Origin: an uncultured Desulfobacter sp.
GTDB taxonomy: Bacteria > Desulfobacterota > Desulfobacteria > Desulfobacterales > Desulfobacteraceae
DNA length: 64,000 bases
Direction of reading: 5' to 3'
Assembly (NCBI GenBank): GCA_963665095.1
Contig: OY762069.1
Span: 1,696,001-1,760,000, forward strand
Shown: positions 6,522 to 12,469 of the stretch, piece by piece
Position numbering within the stretch: position 1 is the first letter of the stretch
Layout: each line of letters begins with the position of its first letter
Translations under genes and position numbers: made by a program
The notes under the pieces: model-generated
What the model was told of the DNA's origin: nothing
Database searches by the model: none
What the model saw: only the letters and a program-made list of their open reading frames with translations

Positions 6522-6800
6522 TTGAATCAAAGGATTAGAATGCGATATCACATGACAGGATTGTCGGAGCAGGACACCAGTAATTATATTATGTCACGAC
6601 TTAAATGGGCCGGCTGTTCAATTCCTATATTTAAAGAGGATGCTTTAGCGGCCATCCGGGAATACTTATACGATTTTCCAAGGCTGATCGGGAATATCTG
6701 CGAAGAGGCCCTGACCTATGCCATGTTCTGTGAGCGGAAAACAGTGGATGCGGACATGATACTAAAAATTAAGATGACAGACGATATGACTACAAATCAA
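6522..6800 (+). pseudogene. C-terminal fragment of an ExeA-like AAA ATPase (transposon helper type)
   Basis: NQRIRMRYHMTGLSEQDTSNYI..RLKWAG...IF..DAL......PRLIGNICEEAL resembles the ExeA/AAA_22 lid region; no Walker A/B present. Confidence 0.65.
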
Positions 6801-6837
6801 AATTATTGGCTCAACCGAAAACAGCATAAAATTCAAG

Positions 6838-7035
6838 TCAACACCTGTGGTAACGGTCAATGGGACGTTCGTCTATGCCGGTATGCAGTTTATGGTGATA
6901 ATCGTCATGCAGCCACAGGTCAAGGGCTGCATTGAGTTCTTCCAGTGTCAGTTTTTCGGTAAGGGATGACAAAAACCGGTCCCGGACCGTACGAAAGACC
7001 CTCTCAATTTTCCCTCGGGAAGGTGAATCATAGGT
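6838..7035 (-). pseudogene. Fragment of a DDE (IS481/Mu-like integrase core) transposase
   Basis: YDSPSRGKIERVFRTVRDRFL...LEELNAALDLWLHDDYHHKLHTGIDERPIDRY is the GKIERxFRT / YxxxxH segment of rve-type transposases; truncated on both sides. Confidence 0.8.
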
Positions 7036-7411
7036 TTTTCGCCGGCGTCTCACTTACCACTGAGGTTGGTGCCTTTTCAGCAAACTTTAAACCCTTATAT
7101 AGGATAAATCCAACACATTTCTTAAAAGCGCTCAAACTGAGCTGATAGAAATAAATGTCGCCTTTTCCGGGGGGGTCACCAGAGGCGGGAGTATAATATA
7201 TTAAATTTACTGGTGGCGTTTCCGGGCTGACACAATATATGGTGGCCGGGGATTTTTTGAAAAAGTGTTCAATCATACCGGTACATTACAAAATGATTGA
7301 TGGCGTGAATTTGTAAGAGAATTTCATTCAATCTCACACAGAGTCACGACTCAATCATTTTGAGGTAATAGTTTCGCTTTTCCTCTGAATTTTTAATTTT
7401 TGAATTCAAAC

Positions 7412-7509
7412 AGTGAAGCTCCTCATAAACAAAAATTACCATCCATAAATGGTGATATTCTTAAGATCAATCTGCAATAAAGCAGTTGAATGTTATAAGG
7501 AGCTTCACT
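7412..7509 (+). promoter_or_regulatory. Leader hairpin occluding the recombinase ribosome-binding site
   Basis: Perfect 12-bp inverted repeat AGTGAAGCTCCT (7412-7423) / AGGAGCTTCACT (7498-7509). The right arm contains AGGAG and abuts ATG 7510. Confidence 0.6.
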
Positions 7510-8958
7510 ATGAAAAAAAGAAACATTTTTCAAAATCAAAGTCAAGAAATCCTTACTCTTTTTGAAATGGCAAAAGACAGGTCCAAGGTCATGTGCATCC
7601 CTATGGATTATGCCAAAAAAGATCATGTGGCCATGTTTTGCAATGGGAATGGAAAAATCCTTCGAAAGCCCTTTTCCATAAAAAACACACCTGAAGGAGT
7701 GGAATATTTAATTGATCAAGTCACAAAATCTTGTCACCATCATGGGATTGATATTAAAAACACTCTTTTCGGCGGGGAGGATTGCGGGACATATGCGAAT
7801 AATTTCATTGAAGCTCTACGTTCGGAAAATTGGCTGGTGGCAGGGGTAAATGCACTTGATGCCAAAAGACACCGGGAAAATATTCAAGCGAGCACGGACC
7901 GGTTAGATCTATTGGGTATCAGTAAAATGCTTCTTAACTGTAGTGGGAATTGTTCTCCGGCTCAATCCGGAATTTATTGGAATTTGAGAACGCTTTGTCG
8001 AGAAAGACAGAAATTGGTGGTCACGAAAAGCGGTGTGAAAAACAGGGTTCACACCATTGTAGATCAGATTTTCCCGGGCTTTTTAAATGAAGCCAAAAGT
8101 GGAATTCCTCCATTTTCACCGGCATCATTAATATTGATGGAAGACCGATTCAGTGTGCATCAGATCCGGCGCCGAAGGCCAGCCGCATTAGTGAAAAACC
8201 TTGCTAAACAAGGTTTACCGAATCCAGAGATCCGTGCAGAAAAACTTCAACGTTATGCCTCCCAGGTCCTCAGACCCCAAAAAGATCATATTGTTACATT
8301 GCAGATGTCATTAAAACAGCAAGTCAGATTAATTCTATGCCTCCAAGAAAGCACTGACCAATTAGAACGAGATATCGCGGCACATTCAGCGCAGACCCCA
8401 GGCGCATTCTTAACCACCATTCGAGGAATAGGTTTAATTTTAGCTGCCGGTGTAAGTGCTGAAATTGGAGATCCCGATAAGCAGAAATCTTTGACCAATC
8501 TGGTGTCTTATGCCGGCATAATTCCGCAAATAAAACAGACCGGAGGGGAACAAGGGAAAACTCAAGTGATTAGAGTCGGTAAGCGGTGTAATCGTATTTT
8601 AAAAAATTATGTCGTCCAGTCCGGCTTGCATATGGGGATTCATGGCCCCGACGAATTAATTGCCGACTATAAACGAAGAGAAGCCCGGGATCAGCATGCT
8701 GATTTCGGCATGGCAAGAAGATTTCTGAGAATGGCAATGTGTTTGATGCGGACCCACCAAGCTTATTTGCCAAAGCGCTTAAGAAGCCAACAGTGCCCGA
8801 TGGAAGAACGAGGCCGTTATTACCAAGAGGCTTGGCCGTTACTCATGGATAAATGGAGAAGGGTCAAGAAGTTAGATATTGCCTTCGATAAAAAAATGCC
8901 CTTGGGGCAATGGCGCAACATGATACAGGAGCTTTATGACATACAATTAAGGTTGTAG
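7510..8958 (+). CDS. IS110-family DEDD transposase/recombinase, long variant
   Basis: RuvC-like DEDD residues (PMDYAK, GGEDCG, STDRLD), coiled-coil segment, Tnp domain TIRGIG...AEIGD...SYAGIIP..KQTGG. AGGAG precedes ATG 7510. Confidence 0.92.
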   Translation: MKKRNIFQNQSQEILTLFEMAKDRSKVMCIPMDYAKKDHVAMFCNGNGKILRKPFSIKNTPEGVEYLIDQVTKSCHHHGIDIKNTLFGGEDCGTYANNFIEALRSENWLVAGVNALDAKRHRENIQASTDRLDLLGISKMLLNCSGNCSPAQSGIYWNLRTLCRERQKLVVTKSGVKNRVHTIVDQIFPGFLNEAKSGIPPFSPASLILMEDRFSVHQIRRRRPAALVKNLAKQGLPNPEIRAEKLQRYASQVLRPQKDHIVTLQMSLKQQVRLILCLQESTDQLERDIAAHSAQTPGAFLTTIRGIGLILAAGVSAEIGDPDKQKSLTNLVSYAGIIPQIKQTGGEQGKTQVIRVGKRCNRILKNYVVQSGLHMGIHGPDELIADYKRREARDQHADFGMARRFLRMAMCLMRTHQAYLPKRLRSQQCPMEERGRYYQEAWPLLMDKWRRVKKLDIAFDKKMPLGQWRNMIQELYDIQLRL

Positions 8959-9009
8959 ATAAAACATAAGCTTGATTTGTTGTCTCATATCAAAATTTTA
9001 ACGATTTTT

Positions 9010-9186
9010 GCGGACGGGATGGCTTCGTTGATACTGTCGCATTGGCTCAGACTAACGAGTCTCATTGACGGCTACTAATAGAATGTCCACCATGTCCGCT
9101 CCAATACTTTCATTATGGCTCAAAGGTGCTCTGATCCTCGGAAATTATGCCGAGAGATCTTGTTATACCAGTATGCCAAATTTTGG
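9010..9186 (+). ncRNA. Predicted bridge RNA/seekRNA (target-binding loop ~9010-9099, donor-binding loop ~9101-9186)
   Basis: Two stem/internal-loop/hairpin units of parallel design. GGTGCTCT (9125-9132) is identical to 9345-9352, and ACTAATAG (9074-9081) is the reverse complement of 9351-9358. Confidence 0.75.
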
Positions 9187-9499
9187 ATTTGTAGGGCATG
9201 GTCTTCCACCAGTAACGCAAATTATTTAAAATCGATGACTTTGGGATACAATTGATCTTATTGTGTATCATTAAAAAACCGATCATATCGGACAGGGATG
9301 GTACGTCTCAAAAAAATATTGAAAATATTCCTTGTTTTCTCTCTGGTGCTCTATTAGTGCTTGGTCAACTATGTGACAAATTGAAGAAAAAAATTGCAAG
9401 CATTTTCAGATGATGTTAATGACTTTATCATTATTAGTTTGAATATTAATACAATTCTGACTATGCTTACTTTTTACACCTACCAGAGACAACCATAAT

Positions 9500-12469
9500 A
9501 TGAGCAGCTTGATCGACAACACTTTCAGAAATGAATTGAACCGTATGGAAATGCTTCGCCCTGAAGAGGAGTTGTCGAGTCTTTATTTTGTCGCTGACAA
9601 AAATGAAGTACAACCGTGTATACGTATTGCTCTTGAACAGGCTGAGCGTTATAAGGCTGACGCAGTTTTTTTCCGAATTTTTCCTATTGGTGACAACCGT
9701 TCCCCGCTTCCCCAGATTTATATTTATTATGACACTGCGCTGTCCCTTGACGATACCTATTATGCCGGGATACACCGCCGCCTATGGAATGCGGGCATTC
9801 CCCCATTAGTATTCATCCTGACTGCCGGGCAGGTGAAAATCCTCAATTGTCGGCAGAAACCTGAAATTGACAAAGACTCCAAAAAACCTGTCTTCACTCC
9901 ATTCCGTACACTTGAAAGGGTAATAGCCGTCGAACGGGCATTTGCCGCTCGGGAAATTGCAGCCGGAACACTCTGGGAAAATACAAAATTTAAGAGTGAC
10001 TTCGTACTTGAAAAAACCGCTTACTTCGAGTTACTTACTCACCTCAAGTCGTTCCGACAGAAACTGCTTTTATTAAAAATTTTGTCAGAGCCTACTGTCA
10101 ACCGAATCTTGGTTATGGCGATTTTAGTCAAATATTTGAATGATCGCCAGGATTCTTCAGGAAACCGTGTTTTCGCGGAAGGGTTCCTGCGTCGATTTTC
10201 CAGTGCGAATAATGATGATATTGAATCTCTCTTCATAGAGAAGGGGAGTTGTATTAAGCTGTTTGATCATTTAAGCAGGCATTTTAATGGTGGCATTTTC
10301 GAATTGACCGATAGTGAAAAAAAGGAATTGTATCAGGCTGATCTCTCACCGATTGCGGTCTTCCTGAAAGGAGATCAGGACCCGACAGGTCAGATGCTCT
10401 TTTGGCCGCTCTATTCGTTTGAAGACCTTCCGGTTGAGTTAATCAGCAATATTTACGAGGAGTTTCTGGCAAAAAAAGAGGATGGTAACGGTGTGGTTTA
10501 CACGCCACCAATGATGGTTGATTTTCTTATAGATCGTTGCTTGCCTCTTGAAGCAAGTACGCTTTCCCGAAAAATTCTCGATCCTGCATGTGGTTCCGGT
10601 GTTTTCCTGGTTGGCGCTTTCAAACGCTTGATACAATGCTGGCGTGTGGCCAACGACTGGAAACAGCCGACTTATCGTGATTTACAGGCAATTCTTAAGA
10701 ATAGCATTTTCGGAATCGACAAAGCGCCCGAAGCAGTTCTGGTAACGGCTTTCAGCCTCTGCGTTGCGCTTTGCGATGAATTGGAGCCGTTGATTATCTG
10801 GAATGAACTTAAATTCGACAACCTGCAAAATAGTAATCTCCAGGATAGAGATTTTTTTGAAATTGTTGAATCTGGGGAATTCAATAATCACTTCGAGTTA
10901 ATTATCGGCAACCCTCCGTTTGACAGCAAACTGACGACTAATGCCGCCAAGCGGATTGAGAAAACTGAAGCCAAAGTTCGTCCCAAACTCCCAGATACTC
11001 AACTTGCGCTACTTTTTCTTGAGCAATCCTTCCGACTTGCCCGTAAGGATGCAACGGTCTGCCTGATTCAACCGGCGGGGCCGCTGCTGTACAACGGTAA
11101 CGCACTGCCTTTCCGCGGCCACCTGTTTGAGCAATTCGCCATTAATCAGGTATTTGATTTCACTCCGCTGGAAGGGGTTCTTTTCAAAGCAAAGGTTGCG
11201 GCAGCGGCGATAGTTGGCTTAAATAAGCCCCCATCGACAGAGAAAATTCAGCATATAACAGTACGTAGAACCAAGGCGCTCAAGGAAAAACTTCTGTTTG
11301 AGTTGGACCCCTATGATTTCCACTGGATACCTCGTGAATCCGTAAAGCAGAAACAATATGTATGGAAAACCAATCTGCTTGGCGGCGGAAGGCTTCACCG
11401 AATGATGGATCGCCTAATTACCGGCGTTAAAACATTGGGCGAGTATCTGGCAGAGAAAAAGGATAATAAAGGCTGGCAATTTGGTGAAGGTTTTAGTGTC
11501 GGATGCGGAAGTTATTTAAATGAGTTGTCCAACGCAAAAGAATTAGCAAAATTATCGCCCAAAAAACTAACGTACCAGTTTAAATTAAAAAGACCCCCTA
11601 AGCTTGCTTCTTGGATAACAGGGAAAAACAATGTTCCGCCAAAAGCTTTGACAAAAGATGGCATTGATTGGAATTCAGTAAAGAGTATCAATAAACTTTT
11701 TTTTGAAGAACCACGCAGGACGACTCAACTCATTTTCTCCGCTCCACATGTGTTAATCAGAGAAAAAGTTGATGGATTGGCTATCCCCGCTGTTTACACG
11801 GACAAAAAATTGGTGTTCACTAATCAAGTTATTGGGGTGTATGCACCTGAGAATGAACAGAATCATTTGAAAGTTCTTGCTGAGCGCTTAAACGACTCCA
11901 AACTCTTTGGGATTCTATCCATATTGCTTAGCGGGAGAATACTGGTCGGGCGATCAAACTCTTTGTATGCAAGAGATATCATGGCATTACCTTATCCTGA
12001 TGATCTGCAGGATATAGATCTGAATTTCTGGGAGCAAGCCCTTGTCGATGACATTGATAACTATCTCGTCGATTTTCGGCGCAGCGGTGAAAAGGCCGCA
12101 ATTTTATCCGAAACAGATGAATCCGACCTGCACAATTTCGGCAAAATGTACTGTAGTATTCTTAACCCTGTGTACAAACAATTCCGCCCCTTAGACCCAA
12201 TTCAAATTGGTTCCTTTATCTGTTACCCTTTTTGCTACGGAGATACGCCCACGATTGAAATGCCTGAAGAAAACAAGGTCGTTCCATTTCTTGATAGTTT
12301 GTTACACTGCCAACAAGGCAGCCGCCTGTTTGTAAACCGCATACTTCGCATGTACGAACAAAACGTAATCTTTATGATCAAACCGAATCAGAAGAGGTAC
12401 TGGCTACGTTCTATAGCTCTTCGCGACGCTGACGAGACATTAGTTGATCTCTTGGAACAAGGATATTGA
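9500..12469 (+). CDS. N6-adenine DNA methyltransferase, Type IIG/Eco57I-like architecture with C-terminal target recognition region
   Basis: VELISNIYEEFL, GVVYTP, motif I ILDPACGSGVF, motif IV IIGNPPF. Confidence 0.9.
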   Translation: MSSLIDNTFRNELNRMEMLRPEEELSSLYFVADKNEVQPCIRIALEQAERYKADAVFFRIFPIGDNRSPLPQIYIYYDTALSLDDTYYAGIHRRLWNAGIPPLVFILTAGQVKILNCRQKPEIDKDSKKPVFTPFRTLERVIAVERAFAAREIAAGTLWENTKFKSDFVLEKTAYFELLTHLKSFRQKLLLLKILSEPTVNRILVMAILVKYLNDRQDSSGNRVFAEGFLRRFSSANNDDIESLFIEKGSCIKLFDHLSRHFNGGIFELTDSEKKELYQADLSPIAVFLKGDQDPTGQMLFWPLYSFEDLPVELISNIYEEFLAKKEDGNGVVYTPPMMVDFLIDRCLPLEASTLSRKILDPACGSGVFLVGAFKRLIQCWRVANDWKQPTYRDLQAILKNSIFGIDKAPEAVLVTAFSLCVALCDELEPLIIWNELKFDNLQNSNLQDRDFFEIVESGEFNNHFELIIGNPPFDSKLTTNAAKRIEKTEAKVRPKLPDTQLALLFLEQSFRLARKDATVCLIQPAGPLLYNGNALPFRGHLFEQFAINQVFDFTPLEGVLFKAKVAAAAIVGLNKPPSTEKIQHITVRRTKALKEKLLFELDPYDFHWIPRESVKQKQYVWKTNLLGGGRLHRMMDRLITGVKTLGEYLAEKKDNKGWQFGEGFSVGCGSYLNELSNAKELAKLSPKKLTYQFKLKRPPKLASWITGKNNVPPKALTKDGIDWNSVKSINKLFFEEPRRTTQLIFSAPHVLIREKVDGLAIPAVYTDKKLVFTNQVIGVYAPENEQNHLKVLAERLNDSKLFGILSILLSGRILVGRSNSLYARDIMALPYPDDLQDIDLNFWEQALVDDIDNYLVDFRRSGEKAAILSETDESDLHNFGKMYCSILNPVYKQFRPLDPIQIGSFICYPFCYGDTPTIEMPEENKVVPFLDSLLHCQQGSRLFVNRILRMYEQNVIFMIKPNQKRYWLRSIALRDADETLVDLLEQGY

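Follow-up and report, generated by a model that had tools for sequence, protein, structure and literature searches.

A predicted bridge RNA in the right end of a divergent IS110-family insertion sequence from an uncultured Desulfobacter

We analysed a window of 64,000 nucleotides from an uncultured Desulfobacter sp. (assembly GCA_963665095.1, contig OY762069.1, positions 1,696,001 to 1,760,000), within which all positions below are counted. The window contains a 2,073-bp insertion sequence (IS) of the IS110 family (7280–9352 on the + strand, the right-hand CT counted once), made up of a structured left end of 230 nt, a recombinase gene (7510–8958) and a right end of 394 nt. Inside the right end, positions 9010–9178 of the + strand hold a two-loop RNA module that, judging from the sequences of this copy and its relatives, is very probably the bridge RNA of the element: its loops would read the insertion site and the joined element ends on behalf of the 482-aa recombinase. 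The mechanism has been known since 2024; the predicted system is not of a new kind but a good further example of it, from a divergent clade of the IS110 family.

Both units of the module had been picked out in an earlier sequence-only reading of this DNA, and every string it named is present in the sequence at the coordinates it gave. Loop 1, the predicted target-reading module (9010–9099, + strand), is closed by stem P1 (9010–9018/9090–9099, including the outer GCGGACG 9010–9016 and TGTCCGC 9093–9099) and contains stem P2 (9036–9041/9066–9072) and a hairpin (9046–9062, with AGACT at 9049–9053 facing AGTCT at 9058–9062) that varies among relatives in both length and sequence. Its guides are the left target guide GTTGATA (9027–9033), followed by CT (9034–9035), and the right target guide ACTAAT (9074–9079), followed by AG (9080–9081) and handshake nucleotides at 9082–9083. 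For the inner stem of this loop, we replace the pairing GTC/GAC of the earlier reading with GYCG/CGGC and CA/TG, for which the relatives show 100% pairing. Loop 2, the predicted donor-reading module (9116–9178, + strand), consists of stem P4 (TGGC 9116–9119/GCCA 9175–9178) and stem P5 (9133–9140/9151–9159, from GATC-CTCGG/CCGAG-A-GATC at 9133–9159). The left donor guide GGTGCT (9125–9130) is followed by CT (9131–9132); the right donor guide TACC (9166–9169), part of the string TTATACC-AG (9163–9171), is followed by AG (9170–9171) and handshake nucleotides at 9172–9173.

Taken together, the loops spell out the right junction of the element (9345–9358, + strand), which is composed of the left donor half GGTGCT (9345–9350), the dinucleotide CT (9351–9352) and the right target half ATTAGT (9353–9358). 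The string GGTGCTCT at 9125–9132 recurs at 9345–9352, and ACTAATAG (9074–9081) is the reverse complement of 9351–9358; as had been claimed, the two matches share CT 9351–9352 alone. The 14-mer predicted from both loops, GGTGCTCTATTAGT, occurs once in the window, exactly at 9345–9358. When up to two mismatches were allowed, shuffled sequences gave a mean of 0.20 matches, with at least one match in 19 of 100 shuffles, and by arithmetic an exact 14-mer is far rarer by chance than such a match. The fold of 9000–9200 has an energy of −59.5 kcal/mol (z −2.77), and 2 of 200 shuffles were equally stable. The observation is far beyond chance, and the strongest evidence for the predicted RNA comes from the relatives, in which the module is kept, similarity ends at the equivalent of 9352 and the loops covary with the flanks.

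Scanning one genome per species yielded 54 related loci, the majority of them in Desulfobacterales-type metagenome-assembled genomes, with identities of 47–81% over the best segment and 51–74% when full-length. An in-frame stop was absent from 30 of the 33 related loci examined. A covariance model from homologous 3' regions, a check proposed in the sequence-only reading, was built from 22 copies and found the module on the strand of the gene, directly after it, in 41 of the 54 loci. Of the 13 loci without a hit, 11 do not reach the 3' end of the gene or continue for less than 150 nt beyond it, and the other two, L052 and L055, match the protein only weakly and over a short stretch. Among the 43 loci that include the 3' end and at least 150 nt downstream, the module thus follows the gene in 41. 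In a 37-row alignment, the 27 pairs of stems P1, P2, P4 and P5 are paired in 96.3% of cells, as opposed to 30–48% with slid partners, and 10 of the 27 pairs are changed on both sides, a value reached in none of 500 shuffles. At one pair the commonest form is U-G, which assigns the fold to the + strand. Column entropy is high in the left and right target guides (1.54 and 1.64 bits) and low in GGATGGCT (0.02), P1 (0.22) and the left and right donor guides (0.16 and 0.31). This contrast between variable guides in loop 1 and conserved guides in loop 2, the latter matching the element ends, bears out the earlier assignment of the first unit to the target and the second to the donor.

The guides and flanks of each locus were extracted by pattern. 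On the left side, the 7 nt before the 5' dinucleotide of loop 1 agree with the left flank at 141 of 196 positions (28 loci), compared with 74.0 ± 8.1 in permuted pairings. On the right side, the 6 nt before the AG or AA of loop 1, taken as their reverse complement, agree with the right flank at 106 of 150 positions (25 non-redundant loci), compared with 48.6 ± 6.0. On either side, 0 of 10,000 permutations reached the observed value, so the covariation of loop and flank sequences, a test that the sequence-only reading had set for itself, came out in its favour. By position, the left match extends over the dinucleotide plus about 6 nt and the right match over the dinucleotide plus 4–5 nt. In loop 1, the 5' guide reads in the sense of the left flank and its dinucleotide, and its pairing partner would be the bottom strand; the 3' guide complements the top strand over the dinucleotide and right flank. 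The dinucleotide itself covaries between guides and ends, being CT in most loci and TT/AA in the group L009–L016. The left guide of L017, mis-registered by the extraction pattern, was scored 0/7 in these counts. That element is inserted within a tandem repeat, with AAAGGTGAAAG on both of its sides. In L029 and L031, the left flanks (AATTCAA-CT and AACTCAA-CT) differ from the elements' own left guides (CATAACA and CGTTACA) and equal the left guides of L002, L004 and L026, as might be expected if copies were guided in trans or had recombined with one another.

The guides of loop 2 correspond to the ends of the element itself. The 5' guide is the last 6 nt of the element plus CT, and the 3' guide, TACCAG (9166–9171), is the reverse complement of CT plus GGTA, the first 4 nt of the left end. 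The right donor half had been predicted as GGTATAA, of which CT plus GGTA was right and the rest wrong, the left end starting with GGTACAT. Among 28 loci with both features, the left donor guide tracks a G/A variant of the right end; the sole disagreements place an RNA G opposite a top-strand DNA A and never the converse, a combination that is tolerable because the G could form a G-T wobble with the bottom strand. The handshake nucleotides of loop 2 (9172–9173) covary with the last two nucleotides of the left target guide, forming Watson-Crick pairs in 24 of 27 non-redundant loci at guide position 7 and in 21 of 27 at position 6; none of 10,000 permutations reached the observed value at either position. 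The loop 1 handshake A9082 offers no variation for comparison because it faces the invariant T that ends the element.

Comparison of relatives also fixes the extent of the element. In 44 aligned downstream regions, which are alike over about 390 nt, similarity ends directly after GGT[G/A]CT-[C/T]T (9345–9352 in the window), so that homologous copies stop at the position equivalent to the end at 9350–9352 on which the sequence-only reading had staked its claim. Contigs from one metatranscriptome match the right flank from exactly 9353/9354 onwards and are unlike the sequence before it, which marks the right boundary independently. In the aligned upstream regions similarity starts with [C/T]T-GGTAC; in the window this corresponds to CC (7278–7279) followed by GGTACATTAC from 7280, and the left end of this copy reads GGTACATTA. 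The left terminus GGTACATT (7280–7287, + strand) includes the GGTA read by loop 2 as right donor half, and its TACATT (7282–7287) is −10-like. The lengths of 22 of the 24 relatives with both ends located fall between 2,056 and 2,112 bp. In its own 6.9-Mb genome the element is single-copy: DNA, protein and covariance-model searches each returned the window copy alone, and none of the three found a second copy or an orphan RNA there.

The recombinase gene encodes a protein of 482 aa with DEDD RuvC-like and Tnp domains; ATG 7510 was chosen as its start because the relatives begin with MKK or MRK at the same place. Residues 32–189 match PF01548 (DEDD_Tnp_IS110, RuvC-like; E 3e-20) and residues 300–360 match PF02371 (Transposase_20, Tnp; E 8.1e-11). 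The match to NCBIfam NF033542 (IS110 family RNA-guided transposase) covers residues 32–417 with 122.2 bits (E 2.6e-35), under the cut-off of 140, and the predicted protein is a clear relative of that family, below the equivalog threshold. In 72,556 plasmids, tblastn gave 637 matching records, all less than 60% identical, the best among the matches listed being 25–27% identical. These values are in keeping with the divergent clade suspected earlier. A phmmer search of the PDB with the single protein gave no match, whereas a 17-sequence family profile matches IS621 (8wt6) at 3.3e-7 and ISCro4 (9t56) at 4.6e-4. In the profile alignment, the invariant residues E90, D130 and D133 correspond to IS621 E60, D102 and D105; the first catalytic Asp is probably the invariant D33, a position outside the aligned stretch. 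The motif G336-I-I-P339-x4-T344-G345, whose G336, P339 and G345 are invariant in the 17 sequences and whose T344 is conserved to at least 90%, has Thr instead of Ser, T344-G345 being aligned with IS621 S241-G242. ISCro4 (9t56) and IS621 (8wt6 and 8wt9) are also the top Foldseek matches of the AlphaFold model (E 1.7e-4 to 9e-4, probability 1.00), with Nop5-type proteins next in the list; TM-scores are low throughout.

The proposed mechanism follows that of the characterized relatives. The element would excise as a circle, in which TTGTTT of the right end and TACATT of the left end would form a promoter, and the RNA would bind a recombinase tetramer. With the insertion site paired to loop 1 and the joined element ends to loop 2, the 482-aa recombinase would recombine the two DNAs, Thr344 being the likely nucleophile in place of Ser241 of IS621. 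The top strands would probably be cut 3' of the dinucleotide, which would account for the CC of the target at the left junction and the CT of the element at the right junction.

Several observations weigh against the predicted bridge RNA or complicate it, beginning with the insertion site of this copy. Its right side is complete, with 6/6 positions in the left donor half, the CT, and 6/6 in the right target half (8/8 for 9074–9081 against 9351–9358). On the left, the sequence-only reading had predicted the flank GTTGATA-CT from the guide, while the actual flank is AATCATA-CC, alike at 4/7 positions and at 1/2 of the dinucleotide; the composite left junction that it predicted, GTTGATACTGGTATAA, is absent from the window at up to three mismatches. 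Matches to CTGGTATAA with at most one mismatch are at chance level (11, with 9.1 expected) and never lie upstream of the gene. Elsewhere, flank matches are poor in L003 (1/7), L014 (1/6), and L009 and L011 (2/6 each), all of which were retained in the counts above. The left side also matches at 4/7 only in L069, a copy 92% identical to ours with 5/6 on the right. The closest copy, L067, is 98% identical and lies in another copy of the repeat described below, with flanks alike for 49 and 122 nt only; it combines the same left guide with the same AATCATA-CC flank, and hence shows the same mismatch at an independent site. Two comparisons within this set of close copies, which come from the same genus, favour the guide reading: the right guide ACTTAT of L067 agrees with its own right flank ATAAGT at 6/6 positions, and L068 (92%) has the left guide ATAAATA and the flank ATAAATA-CC (7/7), with 4/6 on the right.

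The left flank (7181–7279, unstranded; left target half AATCATA at 7271–7277, target-side dinucleotide CC at 7278–7279) belongs to a repeat about 100 bp long, in which the insertion site is about 12 nt away from the edge; the genome has six further matches to this repeat. Uninterrupted repeat copies read TCAATCATA-CC-CTAAGTGCTTGG and CATCAATA-CC-ATTAGTGCTTG, which makes CC the native dinucleotide of the site, whereas the guides of the element read CT. Copies of the repeat occur in L058 (about 1501–1611) and in L062 (about 1490–1580, − strand). In L062 the repeat might be taken for the end of an adjoining DDE_Tnp_1 element, an idea we rejected as that element has its own 25-bp inverted repeats at 1592–1616/2884–2908, with the repeat outside them. 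The right flank (9353–9499) has no other copy in its own genome. Copies at least 90% identical to ours carry four different left guides, and loop 2 and the element ends are identical in all these variants. The mismatch of the left guide may have any of three explanations: tolerance of mismatches, guidance in trans by a sibling RNA, or later drift.

Some contigs from RNA libraries bear on the same question. Metatranscriptome contig X1, about 95% identical, covers 8791–9168, and its left guide differs from that of the window at three positions, giving AATCATA, which is the left flank of the window itself. Contigs in three further RNA libraries cover the module with the left guide ATAAATA, and the right guide is unchanged in all the RNA-library contigs that cover the module. 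These contigs come from relatives 90–95% alike, cannot show strand, ends or level of an RNA, and may derive from contaminating DNA; the metatranscriptome word shares are small (0.07–0.18) and unreliable for habitat or expression level. Contigs of runs X2 and X3 match 8995–9303 of the window and are unlike the sequence before 8995. In L071 of the relative G020 (1749–1923), a module copy lies in a fragment equal to window 8755–9226 and carries ATAAATA and ACTAAT without a full element. Such module copies without a full element (the G020 fragment and the X2 and X3 contigs) may be orphan guide-RNA genes or remnants.

Other reservations concern the RNA and the protein model. RNAalifold, run on the whole alignment, did not return P1 and instead paired 9093–9098 with 9184–9189, which lies in a conserved tail after loop 2 (9184–9215, + strand). 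This alternative partner of the 3' strand of P1 is paired in 97.2% of cells, with 3 of 6 pairs changed on both sides, and is equally conserved; the two pairings are mutually exclusive and both are supported when counted. With a second conserved partner for that strand, the true fold may differ from the one drawn here, or the RNA may act as a conformational switch. A search of Rfam 15 with 6800–9800 (E up to 1) gave no matching family, the sole match being a chance one to MIR395 (E 0.72) elsewhere and on the other strand. No sigma-70-like promoter was found directly upstream of 9010 in the promoter scan, the nearest + strand site being at 8920–8947; many relatives have a −10-like TATAAA or TGATAAA upstream of the RNA, where the corresponding region here, judged by eye, reads TAACGAT. 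The AlphaFold model has a mean predicted local distance difference test (pLDDT) score of 65, falling below 50 for most of residues 297–420, so that its C-terminal half is poor, and TM-scores to IS621 in the Foldseek comparison are low (0.21–0.32). Finally, the loci come from related genomes and are not independent samples.

The position of the RNA could alternatively mean that the element belongs to the IS1111 group and that the stretch is an IS1111-type seekRNA whose short working form would comprise loop 1 only. IS4321 and IS5075, which are common on enterobacterial plasmids, insert near the tip of a repeated element, and the site of our element near the tip of its repeat recalls them; the ten commonest genera in the plasmid search, however, include Enterococcus, Bacillus and their relatives and no enterobacterial genus. 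IS1111 elements usually encode the RNA downstream of the gene (PMC11208160 section 12; PMC11187229 section 6). The same holds for our 394-nt right end, and our left end, at 230 nt, is long as well. Siddiquee et al. also noted IS110-type elements with a downstream non-coding region (PMC11187229 section 6). The TG form of the nucleophile motif has been reported for IS1111 transposases, and loop 1 by itself (90 nt) is close in size to the reported seekRNAs of 74–96 nt (PMC11187229). On the other hand, the subterminal inverted repeat of our element, G[T/C]ACC(A), located one base in from each end, is just 5–6 bp long in 24 loci, as opposed to the 7–17 bp given for IS1111 elements, and the donor guides lie in a simple internal loop rather than in the multi-loop described for many IS1111 RNAs (PMC11208160 section 12). 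The protein of 482 aa is outside the reported range of 330–350 aa (PMC11187229). The order of the guides points in the same direction: the tested IS1111 members have the top-strand-complementary guide first (PMC11187229 sections 9 and 12), whereas here the bottom-strand guide precedes it, as in IS621 and in ISEc21, which is reversed relative to IS1111. Guide polarity, short subterminal repeats and protein length point to the IS621/IS110 type despite the downstream RNA, making membership in the IS1111 group improbable, and the hint of such membership in the sequence-only reading did not hold up. We file the element under the IS110 family with a predicted IS621-type RNA.

It is also conceivable that the repeats function at the DNA level, with no guide RNA involved. 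The end sequences repeated internally (9125–9132 and 9166–9171) and the flank-like strings would then be protein-binding sites or relics of end duplication. Subterminal protein-binding repeats would copy the ends of the element just as the loop 2 guides do, and the promoter scan found no site directly upstream of 9010. Repeated ends, however, cannot explain the loop 1 strings, which agree with DNA beyond the element and differ from one insertion site to another. Moreover, compensatory changes keep the stems paired, and the stems use G-U pairs that would be mismatched on the opposite strand; the handshake positions show covariation between the two loops; and the protein is related to recombinases shown to use such an RNA. 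We consider this explanation extremely improbable.

A more serious alternative accepts the module as real and regards this copy as a stranded relic, in which the left guide has drifted, no perfect site is left and the RNA no longer serves transposition. The element is single-copy, the left target half matches its guide at 4/7, and the site predicted from the present guides, GTTGATACTATTAGT, has no perfect copy in the 6.9 Mb, with 4 two-mismatch sites against 19 for a reversed control. TAACGAT in place of the −10-like sequence points the same way, as does the report that the bridge RNA of IS621 is also used on the flanks during excision (PMC13626964). Against these points, the gene is intact with all catalytic positions present, all stems and donor guides are intact, and 10/12 loop positions are pairable with the flank in a hand count that includes G-T/U-G wobbles. 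The 98% twin L067, at an independent site with the same guide and flank, indicates that this guide, or a sibling RNA acting in trans, evidently worked there. We treat the relic as a possible but doubtful account. Under the bridge-RNA reading, too, this copy may be hard to excise or re-insert, given the guide mismatch and the lack of a perfect genomic site.

Conserved structures are not limited to the RNA module. The left end, as mRNA leader, contains a long covarying hairpin of 72 nt (7290–7361, + strand; 24 pairs in two runs), which starts 10 nt inside the element. Among 24 relatives, 15 of its 20 outer pairs are changed on both sides and 92.5% of cells are paired; its G-U pairs fit the + strand only. 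The hairpin would form the very 5' end of a transcript from the circle-junction promoter proposed above. In the leader region that follows (7412–7509, + strand), AGTGAAGCTCC (7412–7422) can pair with GGAGCTTCACT (7499–7509) in an anti-Shine-Dalgarno (anti-SD) helix covering the ribosome-binding site before ATG 7510. This helix is 79.4% paired, with 5 of 11 pairs changed on both sides, and is kept with other sequences in relatives (for example, GGGATTCCCC/GGGGAACCCC), which suggests control of recombinase translation. A hairpin within the region (7467–7489) is 98.4% paired, with 4 of 8 pairs changed on both sides.

In the right end, a conserved hairpin, CCGAT-CAT-ATCGG (9279–9291, − strand), has changed stem sequences in relatives and is preceded on the + strand by an A-run from 9273. 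The stretch 9273–9291 looks like an intrinsic terminator of the − strand and would stop transcription entering the element from the right. Closer to the end, the −35-like hexamer TTGTTT (9332–9337, + strand) belongs to a conserved TTG(A/T)TT box whose TTG is kept at this distance from the end in a 29-row alignment; in the circle, 17 nt would separate it from the TAC(A/C)TT of the left end, downstream of it. Junction promoters have been reported for ISEc21 (PMC11187229 section 12) and IS621 (PMC11208158), and by analogy TTGTTT and TACATT probably constitute a circle-junction promoter. To the right of the element, 9500–12469 (+ strand) encodes an Eco57I/MmeI-type fused restriction-modification enzyme of 989 aa (PF07669, PF02384 and PF20473), and 6838–7053 (− strand) to its left encodes a 71-aa rve_3 integrase fragment. 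The neighbourhood of the element is thus rich in mobile and defence genes.

RNA-guided bridge recombinases are under development as genome-editing tools, and natural systems that are divergent and well annotated offer useful material to start from. Exact ends, guide registers, the handshake position and a covariance model are now available for this clade. It also provides natural cases of re-targeting, in which copies 92–98% alike have different guides matching different sites, and natural insertions with a central dinucleotide other than that of the element; both bear on the specificity rules of the enzyme. For annotation, the 394 nt after such recombinase genes belong to the element and hold a predicted RNA gene outside the coverage of Rfam. 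A more far-reaching proposal, which we offer tentatively and consider rather unlikely, is that the Desulfobacterales-centred clade is a separate lineage in which an IS621-type RNA moved to the right end, the protein grew to about 480 aa with a Thr nucleophile, and the left end was re-used for the 72-nt hairpin and the anti-SD switch, which may tie translation to circle formation. Insertion at CC by elements whose own dinucleotide is CT, and left guides whose mismatches are tolerated or made good by borrowing in trans, would be further traits of such a lineage, and the four left guides among copies at least 90% identical would point to fast natural re-targeting.

Among known systems, the closest parallels are IS621 and ISCro4 (Durrant et al. 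2024, PMC11208160; Hiraizumi et al. 2024, PMC11208158; structures 8wt6 and 9t56), with which the element shares DEDD RuvC-like and Tnp domains. These papers describe an IS621 RNA with the target loop first, 5' sides matched to the bottom strand over 8–9 nt and 3' sides to the top strand over 4–7 nt, a dinucleotide shared by the guides, discontinuous right-donor pairing (PMC11208160, PMC11208158), top-strand cleavage 3' of CT and handshake guides (PMC11208158). The RNA predicted here resembles it in its size of about 170 nt, in the order of target loop and donor loop, in 5' guides whose bottom-strand pairing would span the dinucleotide plus 6–7 nt and 3' guides whose top-strand pairing would span the dinucleotide plus 4–5 nt, in the CT common to all four guides, in the short or discontinuous right-donor pairing, and in handshake nucleotides located 3' of the 3' guides; as in IS621, there is no target duplication beyond the dinucleotide. 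Unlike IS621, which carries its RNA in the left end, our element encodes the RNA after the gene, and its 230-nt left end instead contains the covarying 72-nt hairpin and the anti-SD pairing. It also differs from IS621 in the replacement of the Ser nucleophile by Thr and in natural insertions at CC sites even though its guides read CT. The protein is longer than those of IS621 and ISCro4 (482 versus 326–341 aa), and the similarity is detectable by profile alone.

The seekRNA of ISEc21, an IS110-type element (Siddiquee et al. 2024, PMC11187229), likewise has the bottom-strand match 5' of the top-strand match, and the two elements have in common a target inside another repeated or mobile sequence and a circle-junction promoter, which in our case is predicted. 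In ISEc21, however, the RNA is located upstream of the gene, the transposase has 358 aa, and the working RNA is known from sequencing the complex after purification (PMC11187229). With ISEc11, ISPa11 and ISKpn4 of the IS1111 group, as described in PMC11187229 and in section 12 of PMC11208160, the element shares a downstream RNA in a long right end and the TG motif; it departs from them in its reversed guide order, its repeats of 5–6 rather than 7–17 bp, a protein about 140 aa longer and a simple internal donor loop. Finally, in terms of its published description alone, the IS110-family element ISPpu9 of Pseudomonas putida with its small RNA Ssr9 (PMC12288879) offers a further likeness: a small-RNA gene lies downstream of the transposase gene, the element sits in a genomic repeat, and extra copies of the RNA occur without the gene, comparable with the G020 fragment and the X2 and X3 contigs found here.

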